Notes under the pieces: model-generated
Told to the model about the DNA's origin: nothing
What the model saw: only the letters and a program-made list of their open reading frames with translations
Databases searched by the model: none
In this document: positions 4,705 to 55,973 of the stretch, one piece after another
Numbering within the stretch: position 1 is the stretch's first letter
Layout of the letters: each line of letters starts with the position of its first letter
Source of the DNA: Nitrospirota bacterium
GTDB taxonomy: Bacteria; Nitrospirota; UBA9217
Direction: 5' to 3'
NCBI GenBank assembly: GCA_963751455.1
Contig: CAVVUN010000003.1
Coordinates: 256,001 to 320,000 of the forward strand
Length of the DNA stretch: 64,000 nt
Program-made: the position numbers and the translations under genes

Positions 4705-5125
4705 ATGATCGAAGCATGCTCGATATTTTCCGGCTTGGTGAGCATCCGATGGATCTAGCCGGCCTGAAAGACCTGCTGAAAAAAGAGGGCGAGCAAGGCT
4801 ATGTTGTGTGCAGCAGTAAGGTCCTGGGTTCTTTTTTGGACGGGTTCATTATTTACAAACGGGGCAGGCAGGAACCGAAGGCAGGGGAGATCAAACGCCC
4901 TGATCCTGAGTTGACGAACAATGTTATTTTGAGGAAAATTCGGATCGCCCTTGAATTAAAAGAGGACGATATGCTCGGCATATTGAAGCTTGCGAAGGTT
5001 ACTATCTCGAAATCCGAATTAAGCGCTTTTTTCAGGGCTACGGAACATAAAAATTTCAAGTCATGCGGGGACCAGATTTTGAGGAACTTTTTAACCGGGC
5101 TTGCTCTTCGGTATCGGCCTGGGGA

Positions 5126-5166
5126 CGGTTTTTAGTTTCGAGTTATTAGTTTTTAGTAATTATCCG
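5126..5166 (+). repeat. Y repeat copy 2 (heptamer tract only)
   Basis: CGGTTTTTAGTTTCGAGTTATTAGTTTTTAGTAATTATCCG; overlaps the yehS stop codon. Confidence 0.6.
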
Positions 5167-9117: not shown

Positions 9118-9200
9118 CATCTTGAGGTCCCCTATGAAGGCTCTCCGTCAAGCATTCGATAAATCCGTTTCGAGTTTTTAGTTATGAGTTTAAATCGAAA
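9118..9200 (+). repeat. X half-site plus Y heptamer tract (copy 3)
   Basis: CATCTTGAGGTCCCCTATGAAG then GTTTCGAGTTTTTAGTTATGAGTTTAAATCGAAA. Confidence 0.65.
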
Positions 9201-9447
9201 CAACCTATGTTGAAGCAGTCCCAACCTCTCCGGAAGCCGGCCATTCTTAATGCGCGCCTGTTCGGTGCAACTTTTAGAAACTTCTAATCCCTATACCCCA
9301 TAAATACCCCGCACAGGGTATTGCCAGCAACTCACAATTTCCCTATATTGATACCAGCAAAAATTAGTTTTAACAAAATTAAATAGTCAATAGCGAAAGA
9401 GGTGCAGCATGCTTAAAAGCGGATGCTTTTGCGAGCCCGAGCAAATA

Positions 9448-9957
9448 ATGGAGAAGAATGATTGCGGACAGAAAGCAATAATTATCAGCGATGACAGGTT
9501 CCTCATGAAGCTTCTGCGATATGCTCTGAGCTCCTCCGAGATTGAAGCAAGGTGCTTCAGCAAGTGGAGCCCCCTCCGGCAGGAGCCGGAGGCTCCCTTG
9601 AACAACGCGACCTCCCGGGACTGCGCACTCGCGCTTACGCGACTCGCAAGTGCGAGTAAGCGCTTTCCACCCCCGGCGGAGCCGGGGGATGCCAAGTCGC
9701 GGGATAGAATGAACCACTGTCTTCCGACGATCGGGGAATTCGATACGATTATCGTCGATTACGACACCGATGGCCTCTCCAGTCCTGAATTTATACAAAG
9801 GCTTCGCGCGCTGTATCCCCGCGCCATAATCATAGTGGTGAGCCAATGGGACGTTGGAATAGCCAGCCTTCGCGCCGGCGCGAACGACTTTCTCCGGAAA
9901 CCGTTCGTACCCTACAGGCTCGCGATGATGATACACGGCGGGGATATTCTGTCCTGA
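9448..9957 (+). CDS. Single-domain response regulator carrying a 48-aa in-frame repeat insertion
   Basis: IISDD, IIVD, VVS and FLRKPF receiver motifs; removing 9562-9705 restores canonical spacing. Confidence 0.75.
   Translation: MEKNDCGQKAIIISDDRFLMKLLRYALSSSEIEARCFSKWSPLRQEPEAPLNNATSRDCALALTRLASASKRFPPPAEPGDAKSRDRMNHCLPTIGEFDTIIVDYDTDGLSSPEFIQRLRALYPRAIIIVVSQWDVGIASLRAGANDFLRKPFVPYRLAMMIHGGDILS
9562..9705 (+). mobile_element. Palindromic MITE/REP-like element, copy A (144 bp)
   Basis: Shares both ends (AAGTGGAGCCCCCTCCGGCAGGAGCCGGAGGCTCCC … CCACCCCCGGCGGAGCCGGGGGATGCCAAGxCGCGGGAT) with the copy at 50860-51054. Confidence 0.85.
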
Positions 9958-10037
9958 AGCGCACGCCATGTTCGATCGAAAGGCGTGGAATCCCGGAGCG
10001 CGGACAGGGGTTCCTCTTGCAATACGCGGGGTTAAAC

Positions 10038-10772
10038 ATGCATCAGAACACAAGATCAATTCTCATTGTCGACAGCAGCTCGGCTTCTATTTTCTATGCA
10101 TCAACGCTGCTCAGAAAACTACGGTATGCCGTCCGTAGCGTGCGAAACGCTGAAGATGCGCTCAATGCGATAGCGGACTCAACGCCGGCGCTTGTGATAA
10201 CGGACGTTGTTCTCCCCAAGATGAGTGGGATTGTTTTTCTGAAAAAGATCAAAAACAACGCCGGCCTCCGGTTCCTTCCGGTAATAATCCATACCTCTGA
10301 TGAAAAGGCCGGCCTGAGGGAAGATTGCATACACGCGGGCTGTGCCGCTTATTTCCTGAAACCCGTGGCCCCCGAGACCATCTACCCCGCAATTCAGTCC
10401 GCCATAGAATCTACACCCAGGGAAAATATCCGGATCAATGCCGCACTAAAAGTCCAAATCGGTCCGGAAGCTGCTGACCCGCGGTTCAGGATCGAAAACG
10501 TGTTAAACATTTCCGAAGGCGGCGTCTACGTGAAGACATCCGCGCCCGAACCGGTCAAGGCGCTTGTTTCGCTTTCGCTTTTCATGGGCAAGCATACGAT
10601 CAATGCTACTGCACTCGTCGTGCACAGTTCGTCCAAGGCAGACGGGGTTCACTCAGTACCCGGGATGGCGATGCAATTTACAAAAATAAGCGCAGGAGAC
10701 GTCAATCTGATCCGGGAATTTGTAAGGACCGAGGTGATGCGGGGCCCTTGTAGCCTCTTAAAAAGTCATTGA
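10038..10772 (+). CDS. Response regulator with C-terminal PilZ domain
   Basis: REC domain (ITD, FLKP) plus RxxxR and NISEGG PilZ motifs; paralog at 55974. Confidence 0.85.
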   Translation: MHQNTRSILIVDSSSASIFYASTLLRKLRYAVRSVRNAEDALNAIADSTPALVITDVVLPKMSGIVFLKKIKNNAGLRFLPVIIHTSDEKAGLREDCIHAGCAAYFLKPVAPETIYPAIQSAIESTPRENIRINAALKVQIGPEAADPRFRIENVLNISEGGVYVKTSAPEPVKALVSLSLFMGKHTINATALVVHSSSKADGVHSVPGMAMQFTKISAGDVNLIREFVRTEVMRGPCSLLKSH

Positions 10773-15097: not shown

Positions 15098-18000
15098 ATG
15101 TCTACTTCTTTCAACAGAAATCTCGTATTAGTAGTGGTTATGCTTTCAGCCGCGTCAGCGCTAATGAGCTGCAGCGGTAACAAAGATAGCGGTCGAGCAA
15201 CATCAGAAACAACCGAAAGTGAATCAAAGGTAATAGCACCCGATGGGCTTAATACATCCAAGCTCATTATCAGCTCGCCAGGTTCCGAACAAATAACACC
15301 ATCAGAATCCGGAAGCTTTACCTCTTCAAGAAATGGAGTATCTGGTTTTAGCACCGCGATTGCCACAGATGTCACAGGAAGTATCGTCATGTTTTCAGCT
15401 GTTACAAATTCAATCATCCCACTCGACGTATATTCGACTGCGGCAACTATTGTGGTTAGTTGTCTTAACAGCTTTGGATTTCAGGGAGAATCATACGAGG
15501 AGCAGATGCCGATACTCCGGACGATTCCCGAGGTTCGGGCGCTAGGTGATTATATCAACAATAATGTAAAATCGATGAGTGAAAAACTATATTCAATCGA
15601 TAATGAAAAATTTATGGCCCTTGTATCTACTGCTGTTACCGCAGCGATACACACCATGCAATACCCCACCAGTTCTGATCAATTTTTATTGCCAGACTGG
15701 GCACAGCCCTCGGTTCCCGTAAATAACGTTCTCACAAGCCGAGCAGCAAGCAAGTTCCAAAGACCAACCTCGGAGGTAACTGAATATTCATGGTGGCCAG
15801 AAGGTACAGATAGTGAATGGGCAATGCTGACTTTCGATTTTGAGCAGGAGAAGGCAAACTTTTTACAGGTGATGATCCACAATTATTGGTTACGAGATGT
15901 ATATGTGTATCTTGTACCATCCAGAGCATTTAGTGCATCGAACATACACAGCGGTCACTATCTTGGCAGTATAGATCCTGCACCTTCCGCTCTGACTTTG
16001 GACGGGATTAGATCAATGTTCGATGGTGACTTATATTTAAATTCTACAACCTTTGTCGATATTCCGCTCAGTGAATTCGAACTAGATAACGAGGCATTAC
16101 TGGCTTTCGTTGGTCCTGGTACAAAAAATAGAGGGTATTTGAGCTGGGATACGAATCGAGATATATTGTTGCGACTAATGATTAGATCTGTTTTAGTAAG
16201 AGTAATTGCTCCTAGTTTCTCATTAGCTTCTAAATTGCCGGCAAACGAAATTGGTAAAGCGCTCGCCGACGACATTGATCTAGTTGATAAAATATTCGAT
16301 GCCGTTGAGGCAGGTGAAACAGGTAAGAAAGCCATAACTGCTTTTCGAGAAGGCAGATACGTTGATGGGTTCTTCAATCTCGTCTCAATTGCAAATAGCT
16401 TTGTTTTTAACGACCCGGGCGATGGTCGAACGAATAGGGCATTAAGGATTTATAGACAGCTGCAGGGAATATCAATTGTCGGCGCGAGGTCCTCTGCAGA
16501 AAATTATATGCTGAACCTTTGCAGTCGTTTAGCCCTGATCGACGGCTTTAATTCTTCATGGAATCTTGTAGGATTTGGTACGACGATTAATAGAGCATCG
16601 GAGTTGGCAATTTATTCGATAACCCGCAAACCTTTAGTCTGCGATACCCCGTCGACCATTACGGTTCCAAGGACTTCGCTTACCGGTAACTATACAGTCA
16701 GCTGGAGCGGTTCGGATACTACTGGAGTAATCTACAAACTGGAAGAATCATCAACTTCGGATTTCTTAAGTTCATCCGAAGTTTACAGCAGCACAGCAAC
16801 CAGTGCGATCATTTTAGGTAAAAAGGAAGGAATTTTCTTTTACAGAGTTAAAGCAACAAAAAACGGTTATGTTAACAGCGAGTGGCGAAAGGGCGATAAT
16901 GGGTGTACTGTAGCTATTGGTACCACCTGGTATCGTGATTCAGACGGCGATGGTTACGGTAATCCCAGCATCGGCGTGTCCTCTGCCACAAAGCCATCTG
17001 GATACGTTGCTGACAACACGGATTGTAACGATGCTTCCTCTAGTATTCATCCCGGCGCTACTGACGTCTGCGAGAATACTGTTGACGAAGACTGCAGCGG
17101 AAGTGCTGCTGTCTGTCCTACCACCTGGTATCGTGATTCTGACGGCGATGGTTACGGTAATCCCAGCATCGGCGTGTCCTCTGCCACGAAACCATCTGGC
17201 TACGTTGCTGACAACACGGATTGTAACGATGCTTCCTCTAGTATTCATCCCGGCGCTACTGACGTCTGCGAGAATACCGTTGACGAAGACTGCAGCGGAA
17301 GTGCTGCTATCTGTCCTACCACCTGGTATCGTGATTCTGACGGCGATGGTTACGGTAATCCCAGCATCGGCGTGTCATCTGCCACGAAGCCATCCGGCTA
17401 CGTAGCTGACAAAAGCGACTGTGACGATTCCTCCTCTAATATCCACACGGGTGCCACTGACAGTTGTGATAACAATGTGGATGAGGACTGCAGCGGAAGC
17501 GCGGCGACATGTCCTACTACTGAATGGTATCGTGATGCAGACGGCGATAGTTACGGCAATCCAAACATCGGCGTGTCCTCTGCCACGAAACCATCTGGCT
17601 ACGTTGCTGACAACACGGATTGTAACGATGCTTCCTCTAGTATTCATCCCGGCGCTACTGACGTCTGCGAGAATACCGTTGACGAAGACTGCAGCGGAAG
17701 TGCTGCTGTCTGTCCTACCACCTGGTATCGTGATTCTGACGGCGATGGTTACGGTAATCCCAGCATCGGCGTGTCCTCTGCCACAAAGCCATCTGGCTAT
17801 GTTGCTGACAACACGGATTGTAACGATGCTTCCTCTAGTATTCATCCCGGCGCTACTGACGTCTGCGAGAATACTGTTGACGAAGACTGCAGCGGAAGTG
17901 CTGCTGTCTGTCCTACCACCTGGTATCGTGATTCTGACGGCGATGGTTACGGTAATCCCAGCATCGGCGTGTCCTCTGCCACAAAGCCATCTGGCTATGT

Positions 18001-19051
18001 TGCTGACAACACGGATTGTAACGATGCTTCCTCTAGTATTCATCCCGGCGCTACTGACGTCTGCGAGAATACTGTTGACGAAGACTGCAGCGGAAGTGCT
18101 GCTGTCTGTCCTACCACCTGGTATCGTGATTCTGACGGCGATGGTTACGGTAATCCAAACATCGGCATGTCCTCTGCCACGAAACCATCTGGTTACGTAG
18201 CCGACAATACCGACTGTGACGACGTGTTCTCTAATATTCATCCCGGTGCTAATGATGTCTGTGACGATGGATTGGATGCCGACTGCAGCGGAAGCGACAC
18301 TATCTGTCCTAAAACTTGGTATCGTGATGCAGACGGCGACAGCTATGGCGATCCCAGCATCAGTAAGTCCTCCGTCGCCAAGCCATCTGGTTATGTATCT
18401 GACAAGACCGACTGTAACGATTCCTCCTCTAATATCCACCCGGATGCCACTGACAGTTGTGATAACAATGTGGATGAGGACTGCAGCGGAAGCGCGGCGA
18501 CATGTCCTACTACTGAATGGTACCGTGATGCAGACGGCGATGGCTATGGTGATCCTTATATAGGAATGTCCTCAGCCACTAAACCATCTGGTTACGTTGC
18601 CGACAATACCGACTGTGACGACGTGTTCTCTAATATTCATCCCGGTGCCAATGATGTCTGTGGCGATGGATTGGATGCTGACTGCAGCGGAAGCGACGCT
18701 TGTCCGCCTCCTGACGATCATGGCGATACATGCACCTCAGCTACGGCAATCGCTCGAAACCAATGTAATGAATTAGGCAATATCGGGTCACAAGATGATG
18801 ACGATTATTTTAAAGTATCTCTACCGTCGTCGGGAAATTGGACTGTATATACAGAGGGAAGCACAGATACGTACGGAACGATATTTAATTCGAATTGTAC
18901 TTCGTTAAAATCTAATGATGATACCGGAGATGGCTCTAATTTCAAAATCACTTACTCCGTTACATCGGCTGGCTCTTACTACATCCGAGTTCGTGGAAAA
19001 AACGACACTACGGGAGGATATTCCTTATTTTCATCTTTCTCATCTAACTAG
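15098..19051 (+). CDS. Large lipoprotein with FN3-like domain, nine MopE-type (putative metal-binding) Cys/Asp repeats and a C-terminal PPC-like domain
   Basis: Lipobox LMSC; repeats WYRDxDGDGYG…DCND…IHPGA..C…DEDC; C-terminal DDHGD…DDDYF…YYIRV; AT-richer than the flanks. Confidence 0.85.
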   Translation: MSTSFNRNLVLVVVMLSAASALMSCSGNKDSGRATSETTESESKVIAPDGLNTSKLIISSPGSEQITPSESGSFTSSRNGVSGFSTAIATDVTGSIVMFSAVTNSIIPLDVYSTAATIVVSCLNSFGFQGESYEEQMPILRTIPEVRALGDYINNNVKSMSEKLYSIDNEKFMALVSTAVTAAIHTMQYPTSSDQFLLPDWAQPSVPVNNVLTSRAASKFQRPTSEVTEYSWWPEGTDSEWAMLTFDFEQEKANFLQVMIHNYWLRDVYVYLVPSRAFSASNIHSGHYLGSIDPAPSALTLDGIRSMFDGDLYLNSTTFVDIPLSEFELDNEALLAFVGPGTKNRGYLSWDTNRDILLRLMIRSVLVRVIAPSFSLASKLPANEIGKALADDIDLVDKIFDAVEAGETGKKAITAFREGRYVDGFFNLVSIANSFVFNDPGDGRTNRALRIYRQLQGISIVGARSSAENYMLNLCSRLALIDGFNSSWNLVGFGTTINRASELAIYSITRKPLVCDTPSTITVPRTSLTGNYTVSWSGSDTTGVIYKLEESSTSDFLSSSEVYSSTATSAIILGKKEGIFFYRVKATKNGYVNSEWRKGDNGCTVAIGTTWYRDSDGDGYGNPSIGVSSATKPSGYVADNTDCNDASSSIHPGATDVCENTVDEDCSGSAAVCPTTWYRDSDGDGYGNPSIGVSSATKPSGYVADNTDCNDASSSIHPGATDVCENTVDEDCSGSAAICPTTWYRDSDGDGYGNPSIGVSSATKPSGYVADKSDCDDSSSNIHTGATDSCDNNVDEDCSGSAATCPTTEWYRDADGDSYGNPNIGVSSATKPSGYVADNTDCNDASSSIHPGATDVCENTVDEDCSGSAAVCPTTWYRDSDGDGYGNPSIGVSSATKPSGYVADNTDCNDASSSIHPGATDVCENTVDEDCSGSAAVCPTTWYRDSDGDGYGNPSIGVSSATKPSGYVADNTDCNDASSSIHPGATDVCENTVDEDCSGSAAVCPTTWYRDSDGDGYGNPNIGMSSATKPSGYVADNTDCDDVFSNIHPGANDVCDDGLDADCSGSDTICPKTWYRDADGDSYGDPSISKSSVAKPSGYVSDKTDCNDSSSNIHPDATDSCDNNVDEDCSGSAATCPTTEWYRDADGDGYGDPYIGMSSATKPSGYVADNTDCDDVFSNIHPGANDVCGDGLDADCSGSDACPPPDDHGDTCTSATAIARNQCNELGNIGSQDDDDYFKVSLPSSGNWTVYTEGSTDTYGTIFNSNCTSLKSNDDTGDGSNFKITYSVTSAGSYYIRVRGKNDTTGGYSLFSSFSSN
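16920..18705 (+). repeat. Intragenic tandem array, 9 x about 198 bp
   Basis: Near-identical units beginning ACCACCTGGTATCGTGAT. Confidence 0.95.
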
Positions 19052-19119: not shown

Positions 19120-20637
19120 CCTTGTAGTTGCATAAACATTTCTTGAAAATATGCAGAAACCTCTGGAAACAGGCTTCATTATTGGATATAGTGCTCCTGC
19201 GATATCATTATTTCACTCAAGCAGGAGGCCACTGAAAGTGAAGTCCAGTAAAGCACAGGTTCTAAGCCGCGTTCACAAAATACCGGAACTGAAGTTCGAG
19301 GATCAACAGCTCACTTCCTACGCGGGCCTTGCTATCATTCAGGCATTCTTCACGAAGCTGAATCTGAAAGCCCGCTTGAAAAGCTGCTTTGATCATCTAC
19401 CGTCGAGCGCCATCTTCGGCAATCACGTCATTACGCTCGTGCTGATCGTGCATCTGATGCTGGGTTATCGGAAACTCCGCGACATCGAATACTATCAGGA
19501 CGACCTTATGGCGCTTCGTCTTCTGGGCCTCCGAAAAATGCCGGACGTTTCCACGATCAGCCGGGCATTGATGACGGTCGACGCAAAGGACATTTTGAAT
19601 CTTCGTCGGTTCTGCCGGGAAATGTCGCTCTCCCGCATACAGGGTTTGAAGCTTCGTCGCGTGACGCTTGATTTCGACGGCTCTGTGCTCTCGACCTCCC
19701 GATGGGCTGAGGGTGCCGCCGTAGGCTTCAACAAAAAGAAAAAAGGGCAGAGAAGCTATTATCCGCTTTTCTGCATGATCGCTCAGTTGGGCATGGTCCT
19801 TGACGTCCTGCCCCGTTCGGGTAACGTACATGATTCCAACGGCGCCCGGGCGTTCATCCTTGCGTGCATCGAACAGGTGCGTGCAACCTGTTCGGATATC
19901 GTCATCGAAGTGCGCATGGACAGCGCTTTCTTCAGCGATGAAATCGTCGGCGCGCTGGAGCGCGACGGAATTGAGTTCACCATCTCGGTCCCCTTTGAGC
20001 GGTTCTCCGAACTCAAACACATGATCGAAGCCAAAAAACGCTGGAGGCGTTACGATTCCGTTGTTTCCTATTTCGACACACCCTGGAAGCCGAAAAGCTG
20101 GGACAGCCGGTTCCGCTTTCTTTTTATTCGTCAAAAAGCCAAAAAGCAGTCAAAAGAGCCGGTGCAGCTTGATATGTTCACGCCGCACGAATACGGGTTT
20201 GACTTCAAGGTGATCGTTACAAACAAAACAACGACGGTGAAGAAAGTCCTGAACTTCCATCAGGGCCGCGGTTCTCAGGAAAACATCCTTGGAGAGCTAA
20301 AGTCCCAGTGCAATATGGATTACGTGGCTGTGAGAAGATTGCACGGAAATCAGCTATACATGATGTCGGCGATCATCTCGCACAATCTCCTGAAGGAACT
20401 TCACATGGTCGCGCATGAACCCGACCGGGGCACCACCGAAAAACGGGCCGCTCTTTGGGAGTTCACGGAGCCCAATACCCTGCGAAGAACACTTATACAG
20501 CGTGCCGGCCGCCTGACACAGCCCGGCGGCAAGCTAACTCTGACAATGAACGCCAATCCACGAGTCAAAAAGGGGTTGTTGCATTATCTCGACCGATTGC
20601 AACGGGCCGCATAGCGATTTTTTATGCAACGTTAAGG
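19120..20637 (+). mobile_element. Complete IS1380-family insertion sequence (1518 bp)
   Basis: IRs CCTTGTAGTTGCATAAA / CCTTAACGTTGCATAAA (14/17); TSD TTTA at 19116-19119 and 20638-20641. Confidence 0.9.
19238..20614 (+). CDS. IS1380-family DDE transposase
   Basis: TLDFDGS, VRMDSAF, HQGRGSQENILGELK; probable GTG start after SD AGGAGG. Confidence 0.9.
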   Translation: MKSSKAQVLSRVHKIPELKFEDQQLTSYAGLAIIQAFFTKLNLKARLKSCFDHLPSSAIFGNHVITLVLIVHLMLGYRKLRDIEYYQDDLMALRLLGLRKMPDVSTISRALMTVDAKDILNLRRFCREMSLSRIQGLKLRRVTLDFDGSVLSTSRWAEGAAVGFNKKKKGQRSYYPLFCMIAQLGMVLDVLPRSGNVHDSNGARAFILACIEQVRATCSDIVIEVRMDSAFFSDEIVGALERDGIEFTISVPFERFSELKHMIEAKKRWRRYDSVVSYFDTPWKPKSWDSRFRFLFIRQKAKKQSKEPVQLDMFTPHEYGFDFKVIVTNKTTTVKKVLNFHQGRGSQENILGELKSQCNMDYVAVRRLHGNQLYMMSAIISHNLLKELHMVAHEPDRGTTEKRAALWEFTEPNTLRRTLIQRAGRLTQPGGKLTLTMNANPRVKKGLLHYLDRLQRAA

Positions 20638-20834
20638 TTTATAGTTTATAGTTTTTAGTTGGTAGTTTCTTGATCACACCAGAACCTCTTAGGGTCACCC
20701 ATATGAAGAGTCCGCCAGTACTCTACCACATTACTTCCCGCCGCGACGAGGGGAAGCTCGTTTTAAAGCGATCGAACCCGTATGGATTTCCTCACCCTCC
20801 AGCACATCAAACATCTGAGGGTCACCCATATGAA
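20638..20834 (+). repeat. 3' part of Y copy 4 followed by two direct X copies
   Basis: TTTATAGTTTATAGTTTTTAGTTGGTAGTTTCTTG; AGGGTCACCCATATGAA at 20691 and 20818. Confidence 0.75.
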
Positions 20835-21594: not shown

Positions 21595-21674
21595 AGGGCA
21601 CCGTCATCTTGAAGCGGTTTCCGGTTTTTAATTCTTAGTTTCAGATTCGAAAAAGCTCTCCTCGCGGGCCTTTC
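21595..21674 (+). repeat. Y repeat copy 5
   Basis: GGGCACCGTCATCTTGAAGCGGTTTCCGGTTTTTAATTCTTAGTTTCAGATTCGAAAAAGCTCTCCTCGCGGGCCTTTC. Confidence 0.7.
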
Positions 21675-21971: not shown

Positions 21972-24900
21972 TTGAAATTCATTCCACTGCTGTTGTTTGG
22001 TCTGCTTTCTGTTCTCCCTGTCCATGCGGCTGAAATGTCGGATCTCGAGGTCCGGACCGCGCACGATTGGGTGACTAATTCCTTCGAAATCCCGGGACAA
22101 GAGCCGTTTTCATTCAACTACAACGGGAGGACCTCCTCTCGATTTCTGGGTTCGTGGAGGGTCTCGCAATCGAAAACCACGCTCGACTCCCGGCGCGTCC
22201 GGCACGACATTCGGTATCGGGATGCGGCAAGCGGCCTGGAAATCCTGGTCGAAGCTGTCGAATATAGAGACTTCGCCGCCGTCGAGTGGGTGCTCAGGTT
22301 CAGGAATACCGGCTCAAAAGACACTTCGATCCTCCGTAATATCTGGCCGATCGACACATCGATGGGCGCTGCCGCGGGCCCGGGAGACTATCTTCTCGGC
22401 TATGCTGCCGGAAGCGCCGCCAAAGAGAGCGACTTTCAGCCGAAAAACGCGCTTATCGCGCCCGGTAGTTCAATAACCTTGAAGCCGTTCGGCGGACGTT
22501 CCTCGGGCGGCGGAACCACGCGCGGACCGCAAGAGGGCGTCCTTCCGTTCTTCAACATCGCATACCCGGGCGGAGACGGGTTCGCCGCAGCTATCGGGTG
22601 GACAGGACAGTGGAACGCAACATTCTCGCGTGCCGCTGGTCCCGCCCTCCGGGTGAATGCCGGAATGGAACGTGTGAATCTGCGGCTGCATCCGGGAGAG
22701 GAAATACGCACTCCCTCCGTGCTTTTGCTATTCTGGACCGGCAACGACAGCACGCGCGGCCGGACATTCCTCCGCCGCCTGCTGCTGGCGCACTATACTC
22801 CCCGGACAGGAGGCGAACTGCAAGCCGCTCCCGTGGCTGCTTCACCGAACGGAACCATCCCGATGGAAGCAGTGAGTGAAACAAACATGAAGCAGGCGAT
22901 TGCAAATATCGCGGCTCATCCGCTGCCGCTCGACACGTGGTGGGTGGATGCCGGGTGGTATGCCGGGAAAAATATTCCCTGGTGCGACCCGGCCCATCTG
23001 GGCTCCGCGGATTTCAACGGCGATGGCACGCTTGATCTCCTTTGCAGCACCGAGGACGGTAAACATCTCGTCGCCCTTTCCGGGGGCGACGGCAGCTTTG
23101 CAGCAATACAACCGTGGCCGGCTGCAGGCGCCTGGTGCGATCCGGCGCATCTTTCCACGGGTGACTTCAACGCTGACGGCAGAGCCGACCTGATCTGCAG
23201 CGGCGAGGACGGCATGCATGCTATTGCCTTCTCGGAGGGCAACGGCGCGTTTTCGTCGCCGGGGTGGTGGCAGCAGGCGTGGTGCGAACCGCGGAGCCTG
23301 GACATGGCCGACTTCAACGGCGATCGCAAGCTTGACCTCATTTGCAACGCGGACGGCGGCATACACTTCGTCGCCCTTTCCAAGGGCGACGGCAGCTTTG
23401 CGCCAATGCCGGCGTGGCCTGCCGGCGGCGCATGGTGCGATCCAAAGCATCTCGCGATGGGTGACTTCAACGGCGACAATAAAGCCGACCTGATCTGCAG
23501 CGCTGAAGACGGCAGGCACATTATTGCCTTCTCGGACGGAAACGGCGCGTTTTCCTCGCCGGGTTGGTGGCAGCAGGCGTGGTGCGAACCGCGGAGCCTG
23601 GACATGGCCGACTTCAACGGCGATCGCAAGCTTGACCTCATTTGCAATGCCGACGACGGCAAACACCTCGTCGCCCTTTCTCAAGGCGACGGCAGCTTTG
23701 CGCCGATGCCGGCGTGGCCTGCGAGGAGCGCCTGGTGCGATCCAAAGCATCTCGCGACGGGTGACTTTAACGGCGACCATAAAACAGACCTGATCTGCAG
23801 CGCCGAAGACGGCAGGCACATTATTGCCTTCTCGGAAGGCAACGGCTCGTTTTCCTCTTCGGAATGGTCGCATGACGCCTGGTGCGATCCGGCACATCTC
23901 AGAATAGGCGATTACAGCGGAGCGGGAAAAACCGGATTAAGTTGCCACTCGGACGACGGAAGGCACATCGTGGCATTCTCGAACGGGCTCGGCGGCTTTA
24001 TTTCGCCGGGCTGGTGGACCAACTCGAACTGGGCTGAAAATGTCGGGAACTTCGATCCCGACCCGGTCAGGTTCCCGCATGGGCTGAAACCCGTGGCAGA
24101 CGCAGCGCACGCAAAAGGGCTCAAGTTCCTTTTATGGTTTGAGCCGGAGCGCGCCATGCCGGGCACCTGGATGTACGACAATCATTTCGACTGGCTTATC
24201 CCTCCTCCCGGCAACTTGCCCGATGACGTAAACTACTTGTACAGGGACGGATTTCACCTGGTAAATTTAGGACTGCCTGAGGCGCGTGAGCTGCTGCGCC
24301 GGAAGGTGTCGGCCATGATCGCCGACATAGGGATCGACATCTATCGTCACGATTTCAATATGTATCCGCTCTATTACTGGCGCAGTCAGGATGAGCGCGA
24401 CCGGCAGGGCATGACGGAAATACGGTATGTCACGGGACCCTATGCGTTTCTCGACGGGCTCAGGCAGGATCATCCGGACCTCGTGATCGACAACTGCGCC
24501 TCGGGAGGGCGCAGGATTGATTTCGAAATGCTGCGGAGAGGGTTTGTGCTGACGAGGAGCGACTACTTGTGGGAGCCTGCGGGGCAGCAGAACCATACGT
24601 ACGGGCTTTCCGAATGGGTACCCATATCAGGAATCGGAGCGGCGAGCAACGACGCATACAGCGTGCGGAGCGGAATGGGCTACCATGGAGTCTTCGCATT
24701 CGACTACTTCTCCGTTGATCCCTCGTATTGGCTGCAAAGCAACAGGGTCTTGACCGAGATGACTTCCATGCGGGACCTTTTCCTGGGGGATTTCACGCCC
24801 CTTACGCCGACGGACAATGACAATTCCCGCTGCATTGCCTGGCAGTTCCATCGGCAGGATTCGGGCCGCGGATTGGTGCAGGCATTTCGGCGTGAGGGAT

Positions 24901-30569: not shown

Positions 30570-30646
30570 AAGGTCACCTCAAGGTACATGATACAGTTTG
30601 AAGTTTTTAGTTGTTAGTTCAAAACACGAAAATTTTTCCCCGAGCC
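30570..30646 (+). repeat. Y repeat copy 6
   Basis: AGGTCACCTCAAGGTACATGATACAGTTTGAAGTTTTTAGTTGTTAGTTCAAAACACGAAAA…CGAGCC. Confidence 0.75.
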
Positions 30647-45751: not shown

Positions 45752-45774
45752 GTGGCCTGCTTACTAAATAGTAA

Positions 45775-45853
45775 GCAGGCTGGTTGCGCCACTGGCTCCA
45801 CCACCTACCCTGGCGCCCAAATCGGCCGGGTGGTTTCATAGCCGCCCTCTGGT
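45775..45853 (-). ncRNA. Cyclic di-GMP-II riboswitch, GCG-variant-like
   Basis: GGCGGCUAUGA-AACCACC…UUUGGGCGCC…GGUGGU-GGAGCCAGUGGCGCAACCAGCC fits the class II layout (UGA/GA k-turn, GCGCC:GGCGC pseudoknot), with GCG in place of GAA. Confidence 0.8.
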
Positions 45854-46054
45854 TAATAAAAAGTAGCCTTCGGGAACACCTAAGAACGTTCACCCCCTCT
45901 CTCGTTTTAATCAATATCCCATATAAGTAAAACATAAAAACGATAAAGCGTGTGTGATCTGAATTACAAATCGTTATATAGTTATTCCCTCATGAAATGG
46001 TTTTGATATGCAGTAAACTGATCGGCGCAAGGGGGATATTGCGGCGGTCACAAA

Positions 46055-50859: not shown

Positions 50860-51054
50860 AAGTGGAGCCCCCTCCGGCAGGAGCCGGAGGCTCCCCTCAA
50901 TAACGCGACCTTCCGCCTGCACCAAGCGTTTACGAGTGCGCTTAGCGCGAGTGCATGGCGGAACTGCTAACTCGCGTTTGCACGGCGCTTCATGCCGGCG
51001 CGAGTTAGCGCTTTCCACCCCCGGCGGGAGCCGGGGGATGCCAAGGCGCGGGAT
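50860..51054 (+). mobile_element. Palindromic MITE/REP-like element, copy B (195 bp, intergenic)
   Basis: Same termini as 9562-9705 with a longer internal palindromic segment; related internal fragment at about 51995-52040. Confidence 0.85.
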
Positions 51055-55824: not shown

Positions 55825-55973
55825 TAAGTAAAGCTCCGGGCTGGGGCGGGCCAGGCGGCCCTTAGCTGCACTGGAACGGCCGGAATCATATACGCGGTTC
55901 ACTCAGGAAGACGTACCTGGATTTCACAGGCATAGGCGGAACTGTGGAGAACGCAGAAGGACGCGTAACAAAA

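Follow-up and report, generated by a model that had tools for sequence, protein, structure and literature searches.

How has a receiver-domain gene come to hold an additional stretch that interrupts the domain and yet leaves the reading frame open, and what does this stretch do to the protein? The question arises in the window, the whole stretch of 64,000 nucleotides that was analysed, where the original prediction had placed a 144-bp palindromic insert that would generate protein loops in the manner of Rickettsia palindromic elements (RPEs). Our preferred reading, to which we give a probability of roughly 85%, is that the insert is a transposase-less palindrome-associated transposable element (PATE) of the IS200/IS605 type, 141 bases in length, which likely jumped only recently into an intact receiver-domain gene, the frame likely having been kept by chance. 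The reading rests on the boundaries of the element and its pair of hairpins, on the pairing of guides with targets, on strand bias, on an ortholog with an empty site, and on related autonomous IS200 elements that carry the same hairpin.

The insert, its ends and the receiver protein

The features at this locus, and the second copy of the element in the window, are as follows.

9409-9957, plus strand: receiver gene of the stand-alone response-regulator type, 182 aa with the insert and 135 aa without it
9564-9704, minus strand (active top strand): PATE, 141 nt, non-autonomous IS200/IS605, adding 47 residues after strand beta2
9705-9708, minus strand: host target tetranucleotide TCTA, adjoining the left end (sequence and family pairing rule)
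9689-9692, minus strand: GCAT, guide tetranucleotide of the left end, abutting the left hairpin on its 5' side (sequence and covariation)
9670-9688, minus strand: left subterminal hairpin with a 7-bp GC stem (sequence and fold)
9619-9662, no strand: internal hairpin module, variable between subfamilies, limits approximate (fold and family alignment)
9593-9596, minus strand: right-end guide tetranucleotide GGAG (family pairing with CCAC)
9573-9592, minus strand: right subterminal hairpin, almost the same as the 20-nt hairpin in the autonomous IS200-type elements L245 and L248
9564-9567, minus strand: right cleavage site CCAC, the last four bases of the element (right-end family rule)
50862-51053, minus strand: intergenic sister copy, 192 nt, with an extra nested hairpin repeat, guide GCAT and target GCAA

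The reading frame is open throughout, element included, and Pfam recognizes the receiver domain at residues 110-175 of the 182-aa product (PF00072, E 6.9e-08), which bears out the proposal that the insert lies in frame and without a stop inside such a domain. A homolog search gave 45 proteins. The empty-site ortholog P0002 has 135 aa, of which 115 are identical, and differs in length by a single gap of exactly 47 residues, reading CFS-N-RM at the insertion point; the segment is likewise absent from 44 of the 44 other rows of alignment A1 (P0002 and 43 more), so that the comparison with orthologs came out as the original prediction required. Since the gap in P0002 is exactly 47 residues, the insert is 141 nt long and splits an Asn codon. 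The predicted element is therefore real, but its length is 141 bp or 47 codons; the 144-bp, 48-codon boundary is ruled out by the family alignment together with P0002. A cut of 48 codons would delete an Asn that 74% of the remaining 43 family rows possess. The copies have AGTGG in common at the 5' end of the plus strand but not base 9562, which the receiver-gene copy shares with its sister by chance only; the final AT of the proposed 144-bp insert is host target sequence. The IS200 cleavage rule puts the element at 9704 down to 9564, to which 9563-9703 is sequence-equivalent. Even with the correct cut, the stretch between alpha1 and beta3 has one residue fewer than in distant orthologs, and the same is true of P0002. 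Compensating frameshifts 3' of the insert, considered as a cause of the odd alpha2 (frame 3 reads NEPLS), were rejected, as spacing and type of sequence are no different in P0002. The ortholog gap equals the length of the element, so that at the protein level there is no target duplication, as predicted, and a second such case is provided by the exact 49-residue gap that corresponds to a 147-nt copy. Empty-site ortholog DNA was sought in metagenome and genome contigs and none was found, the same-family genomes giving distant orthologs only.

The element folds strongly as multi-hairpin DNA (z -6.9, a value that none of 200 shuffles equalled); the sister copy, which had been placed at 50860-51054 and is indeed present there, does so too (z -5.7). 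Its ends, TCCCGCG and CCAC, are not complementary, and hence it has no terminal inverted repeats. A structured RNA family was considered and rejected, there being no Rfam match at the receiver-gene copy or the sister copy. By BLASTN the receiver-gene copy is 99.3% identical to two intergenic copies; the insertion is therefore young, and adaptation is not readable from this copy. At 50912-50960 of the window lies a second hairpin repeat of about 50 nt, which is commoner (85 BLASTN matches genome-wide) and is also nested inside some PATE copies.

The young element may have inactivated its host protein, leaving a pseudogene that stays open by accident. This alternative accepts the same PATE origin and concerns function only, so that it can hold together with the best explanation; we regard it as a real possibility, somewhat short of even odds. 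The insertion point is the C-terminal end of beta2, which we take to be the face of the receiver that bears the phosphorylation site. In the structural models helix alpha2 is shorter with the insert (residues 99-103, versus 52-57 in P0002) and is predicted with less confidence. Moreover, the gene is patchy, being found in 9 of 64 same-family genomes at E<=1e-20, and the 147-nt copy, although in frame, sits in a gene that is frameshifted on both sides. Against inactivation, the 182-aa protein keeps D28/D29, D117, S145 and K164-P165, among which D117 is presumably the phosphoacceptor position, residue roles being assumed here from receiver domains generally; the first acidic position is Ser in this protein and Thr in P0002. 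Among the 20 differences to P0002, the 182-aa protein is nearer to the family at 9 and P0002 at 4, and the gene therefore gives no sign of decay, although, with so young an insertion, decay would not yet be visible either way. A weak sigma70-like site upstream of the gene also speaks against a pseudogene. AlphaFold predicts that the receiver core is kept (core blocks at pLDDT of about 89-96) and places the insert, at 42-60, after beta2; the matches that Foldseek listed for this model are almost all receiver domains. The prediction for the 47 added residues is a disordered loop that follows beta2, and the enlarged receiver, if it is made, would most likely be neutral or mildly harmful.

Several other features of the window may be recorded here. 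The gene after the receiver gene encodes a receiver-PilZ protein (9846-10772, plus strand), and at 55970 there is a paralogous start. Short TAGTT-like units make up a dispersed T-rich repeat that occurs at 2821-2854, 5118-5151, 9157-9190, 20634-20667, 21607-21640 and 30586-30619, one copy lying upstream of the receiver gene. Tandem repeats at 16921-18609 (about 198 nt, 8 copies) and 22980-23879 (300 nt, 3 copies) probably belong to repeat-protein genes, and a match to the c-di-GMP-II-GAG riboswitch lies at 45769-45855 on the minus strand (43.4 bits, gathering threshold 40).

Copies of the element and insertions in genes

A BLASTN search of the own genome (5.72 Mb, 15 contigs) with the two copies gave 191 rows, from which end pairing produced 53 entries; 43 of these are complete, with both ends, and 10 with one end missing were dropped. 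The complete copies span 43-210 nt, including single-hairpin forms of 45 nt, and are thus too short to encode a transposase. Matches to the element turned up in 14 of 24 genomes of the same family, and in 0 of 16 from elsewhere in the phylum. A pattern scan of a species-genome collection found 101 stretches, and the 80 of them that were listed come from Nitrospirota, Syntrophaceae, Smithella and other deltaproteobacterial records. Together with a named TilS homolog, these matches suggest that the window too is of Nitrospirota origin. The other genomes contributed 87 complete copies, 12 of which passed the coding filter.

It could be argued that such elements are RPE-like after all, their lengths and open frames having been selected so that coding insertions add tolerated loops. 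We consider this unlikely. Coding calls combined a home-made gene model with open-frame scans and Pfam on the flanks; the model called 72% of the genome and 811 of 1500 random positions as coding, and missed the receiver gene in a strict test. As this detector is weak, the coding counts are lower bounds, and six mid-gene cases have little power. At least 6 of the 43 own copies are mid-gene and at least 4 lie at gene ends; about 10 of 43 copies are therefore in or at genes, compared with about 65% of the target 5-mers in called genes (p 2e-8), which indicates that copies are depleted from genes. Three of the six mid-gene copies are open in frame, namely those in the receiver gene, in tilS (45 nt) and in a 4Fe-4S membrane-protein gene (147 nt), whereas those in a RibD_C gene, in higB and in a tnpA relic disrupt the frame or carry a stop. 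The chance rate of being open in frame over all copies, strands and phases is 79 of 258 (0.31), and the genome-wide count with which the prediction was to be checked is thus not above chance (p 0.27); of the element's own six frames, three are open, against 2.3 in shuffles. Within L196-L201, copies disrupt the RibD_C gene and higB; glyoxalase, WD40, thiolase and hydrolase genes have copies at or close to their 3' ends.

The lengths send a mixed message: 25 of the 43 own copies are divisible by three (naive p 0.0014, the copies not being independent), in favor of selection, but the corresponding tally in other genomes is 34/29/24. The read-through cases themselves also speak for tolerated loops, among them the one in tilS.

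L194:421-1866, G000:C15:865149-865193: tilS gene and its 45-nt copy, in frame, with a single hairpin and a decayed right end

This tilS is the sole match in the genome, and its product is 15 residues longer than the modal ortholog, the comparison covering the relevant region of the protein in 29 orthologs. The motif of the insert was found in 0 of 57 other TilS matches, the best of which are 47-63% identical over the region, and the TilS loop that holds the 15-residue insert takes unrelated inserts in other species, which argues against selection for this one. The three best mid-gene cases outside the own genome are all read as passing through the element: a 111-nt copy is read through in a PIN-domain gene (L166, Pfam support on both sides), and copies of 105 nt in a DUF4185 gene (L155) and of 156 nt in a spermidine-synthase-like gene (L097) are probably read through, each with Pfam support on one side. 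However, the 4Fe-4S gene, which has the exact insert of 49 residues, carries frameshifts on either side of it, and so being in frame does not mean being functional. The insert peptides come from at least three different frames and both strands, and there is therefore no conserved peptide.

RPEs have 12-bp terminal inverted repeats (PMC2229807, Table 1), and the accessible text of two reviews (PMC10969869, PMC2229807) describes a conserved peptide and nearly half of the copies in ORFs. The present element resembles them, as far as these accounts go, in its size of about 150 bp, in its strong folding, and in being found not only in intergenic DNA but also in frame within conserved genes, one of them for a tRNA-modifying enzyme. 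It differs in having no terminal repeats, in using several frames, in having about a quarter of its copies in or at genes, and in having a definable HUH mechanism. The element behaves like an RPE in effect but is not one, and the original assignment to RPE-like, loop-generating elements is not supported, given that most copies lie outside genes, that the in-frame cases do not exceed chance, and that one of them is in a frameshifted gene.

Guides, targets and the transposase

In IS608, according to the portions of text available from PMC3201880 and PMC5934647, the cleavage tetranucleotides are picked by guides located 5' of each hairpin, whose first two bases pair crosswise; the A at position 3 stays unpaired, and one +1 base is preferred. 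The pairing was scored in 80 copies, 31 of the own genome and 49 of other genomes, whose left ends fit a strict pattern. Guide CAAT goes with target TGAA in 27 of 33 copies, GCAT with GCAA in 21 of 33 (GCNA in 25 of 33), and GAAT with TCAA in 5 of 8. The cross pairs are Watson-Crick in 139 of 160 instances (10,000 shuffles: mean 72, maximum 104), and flank bases farther out from the target are near uniform. As the guides fall into three main classes, this indicates target specificity over many insertions and not many independent guide changes. The receiver-gene copy, with guide GCAT, has target TCTA, the first base of which does not fit GCNA. On the right, the guide GGAG is accompanied by CCAC in 97 of the 104 copies scored (of 130), and its pairing, being invariant, is consistent rather than covarying; the +1 base after CCAC is T in 97 of 104, as is base 9563 on the minus strand in the receiver gene.

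With GC skew as a proxy for replication direction, the G-rich strand carries the top strand of 36 of the 43 copies when skew is taken over 50 and 100 kb (p 9e-6) and of 31 of 43 over 25 kb; all 9 IS200-type loci checked behave likewise. This bias fits insertion on the lagging-strand template (PMC6006769, in the part available). Compared with IS608, as described in the text available, the element shares a guide 5' of each hairpin, the g1:c2 and g2:c1 cross pairing (PMC3201880, PMC5934647), an A that is left unpaired at position 3, a preference for one +1 base and a replication strand bias. It differs in lacking tnpA and tnpB, in having its left cut and guide closer together (12 nt), and in its targets, which are TGAA, GCNA and TCAA with +1 T in place of TTAC with +1 C. 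An HUH (IS200/IS605) origin is therefore well supported: the hairpin ends of this type that had been predicted are accompanied by guide-target pairing, a right-end rule, strand bias and autonomous relatives with the same hairpin.

REP/REPIN sequences, which are mobilized by RAYTs, share with the element a hairpin with a 5' tetranucleotide, the Y1 HUH superfamily and many genomic copies (PMC8266576, text available in part), and intragenic REPs are known (PMC3733652, likewise in part); they differ from it in that the element has a tetranucleotide target with guide covariation, asymmetric ends and no adjacent RAYT found. An element of this type, read on the plus strand, is hardly credible here. 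In its favor, GTGG directly 5' of a hairpin recalls the GT(A/G)G REP signature, although it is also the complement of the right cleavage site CCAC, and many of the genome's Y1 matches (33 in all) are of RAYT length. Against it, the minus-strand target tracks the guide, the ends show IS-like left/right asymmetry, the copies show replication strand bias, the hairpin is common to IS200-type tnpA elements, and 10 Y1 queries found no Y1 gene in the 131 loci L051-L181. When 30 own Y1 loci were searched for element ends, only L005 had them, with an IS200-type gene about 1 kb away. At L004 and L018 (G000:C1:505331-506108), an IS200-type element apparently lies inside a longer, RAYT-like Y1 gene.

Which transposase could move the IS200/IS605-type PATE? 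Six intact IS200-type frames are among the 33 Y1 matches, and their hairpins differ from that of the element. Two remnants in the own genome are closer.

L213, G000:C11:40223-40611: tnpA relic with a copy of the element
C11:26360-26408: 42-nt single-hairpin miniature of the relic's IS family, 14 kb from the relic

The copy interrupts the HUH motif of the relic, whose own right hairpin is nearly that of the element. This relic and the miniature are all that was found of the matching hairpin family in the own genome, which thus yielded no intact transposase of that family. Relatives of the relic occur in 6 of 63 same-family genomes, and in five PATE-rich relatives nothing matched Y1 at E<=1e-15. 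Of 5 further carrier genomes, 2 have Y1 genes and 3 likewise gave no match. The same or nearly the same 20-nt hairpin stands beside a Y1 tnpA at L244, L245, L248 and L257-L265, and all of these except L244 are IS200-type elements with the same guide geometry as the element. In genome G082, 7 of 9 copies of the matching IS200 family carry an in-frame TAG. This helper family is a candidate. No autonomous element with the PATE's own outer ends was found in L051-L181, the nearest form being L263 of G082, in which an IS200 inside a decayed PATE gives the order PATE left end, tnpA, PATE right end. At L261 of the same genome another IS200 abuts a PATE half. It is possible that PATE and IS200 target each other via their common hairpin.

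A PATE family and what it may mean

PATEs have been described in Haloquadratum (PMC3119063) and Geobacillus stearothermophilus (10.1101/2023.03.14.532601), and the element has every PATE feature that we examined. To the extent covered by the accessible text, it shares with them the lack of a transposase and of terminal inverted repeats, near-terminal palindromes resembling IS200/IS605, the absence of target duplication, nesting with other small repeats, and core-deleted single-hairpin forms as in Haloquadratum (PMC3119063). It belongs to a different sequence family, found in Nitrospirota and in Syntrophaceae/Smithella records, and differs also in having three guide variants with three targets within one miniature family and in its in-frame coding copies. 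PATEs, natural guide-target covariation (ISGst1-5 of G. stearothermophilus, a species that also has PATE-like elements; 10.1101/2023.03.14.532601, text in part) and in-frame small repeats are thus already in print; a non-exhaustive search of open-access text found no literature on this PATE family.

The following sequence of events would account for the locus. A Y1 HUH transposase, supplied in trans, would bind the hairpins of the element on the single-stranded lagging-strand template and cut after tetranucleotides chosen through base pairing with both guides; the excised circle would then be pasted 3' of a matching target, without duplication. Most insertions in coding sequence would be purged, and the receiver-gene copy may have survived because its length is a multiple of three, the frame used is free of stops, and a disordered loop is predicted for the 47 residues.

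A bolder interpretation is that a single miniature HUH family, to which natural mutation of the guides has given three kinds of target, works as a reversible switch of protein loops through scarless TnpA excision. We think this very unlikely. If it were true, excision would toggle loops of 15-52 residues in working proteins, including a receiver domain and the only TilS, and RPE-like protein remodelling would gain a defined mechanism.

In summary, under the preferred reading of a recent PATE insertion, the receiver gene offers a clean natural case in which an RPE-like in-frame insertion can be traced, with exact ends, to a defined IS200/IS605 mechanism. The three guide-target variants, together with the candidate helper family, provide a test set for DNA-guided targeting, and the insertions in the receiver domain and in TilS provide a test set for loop tolerance.
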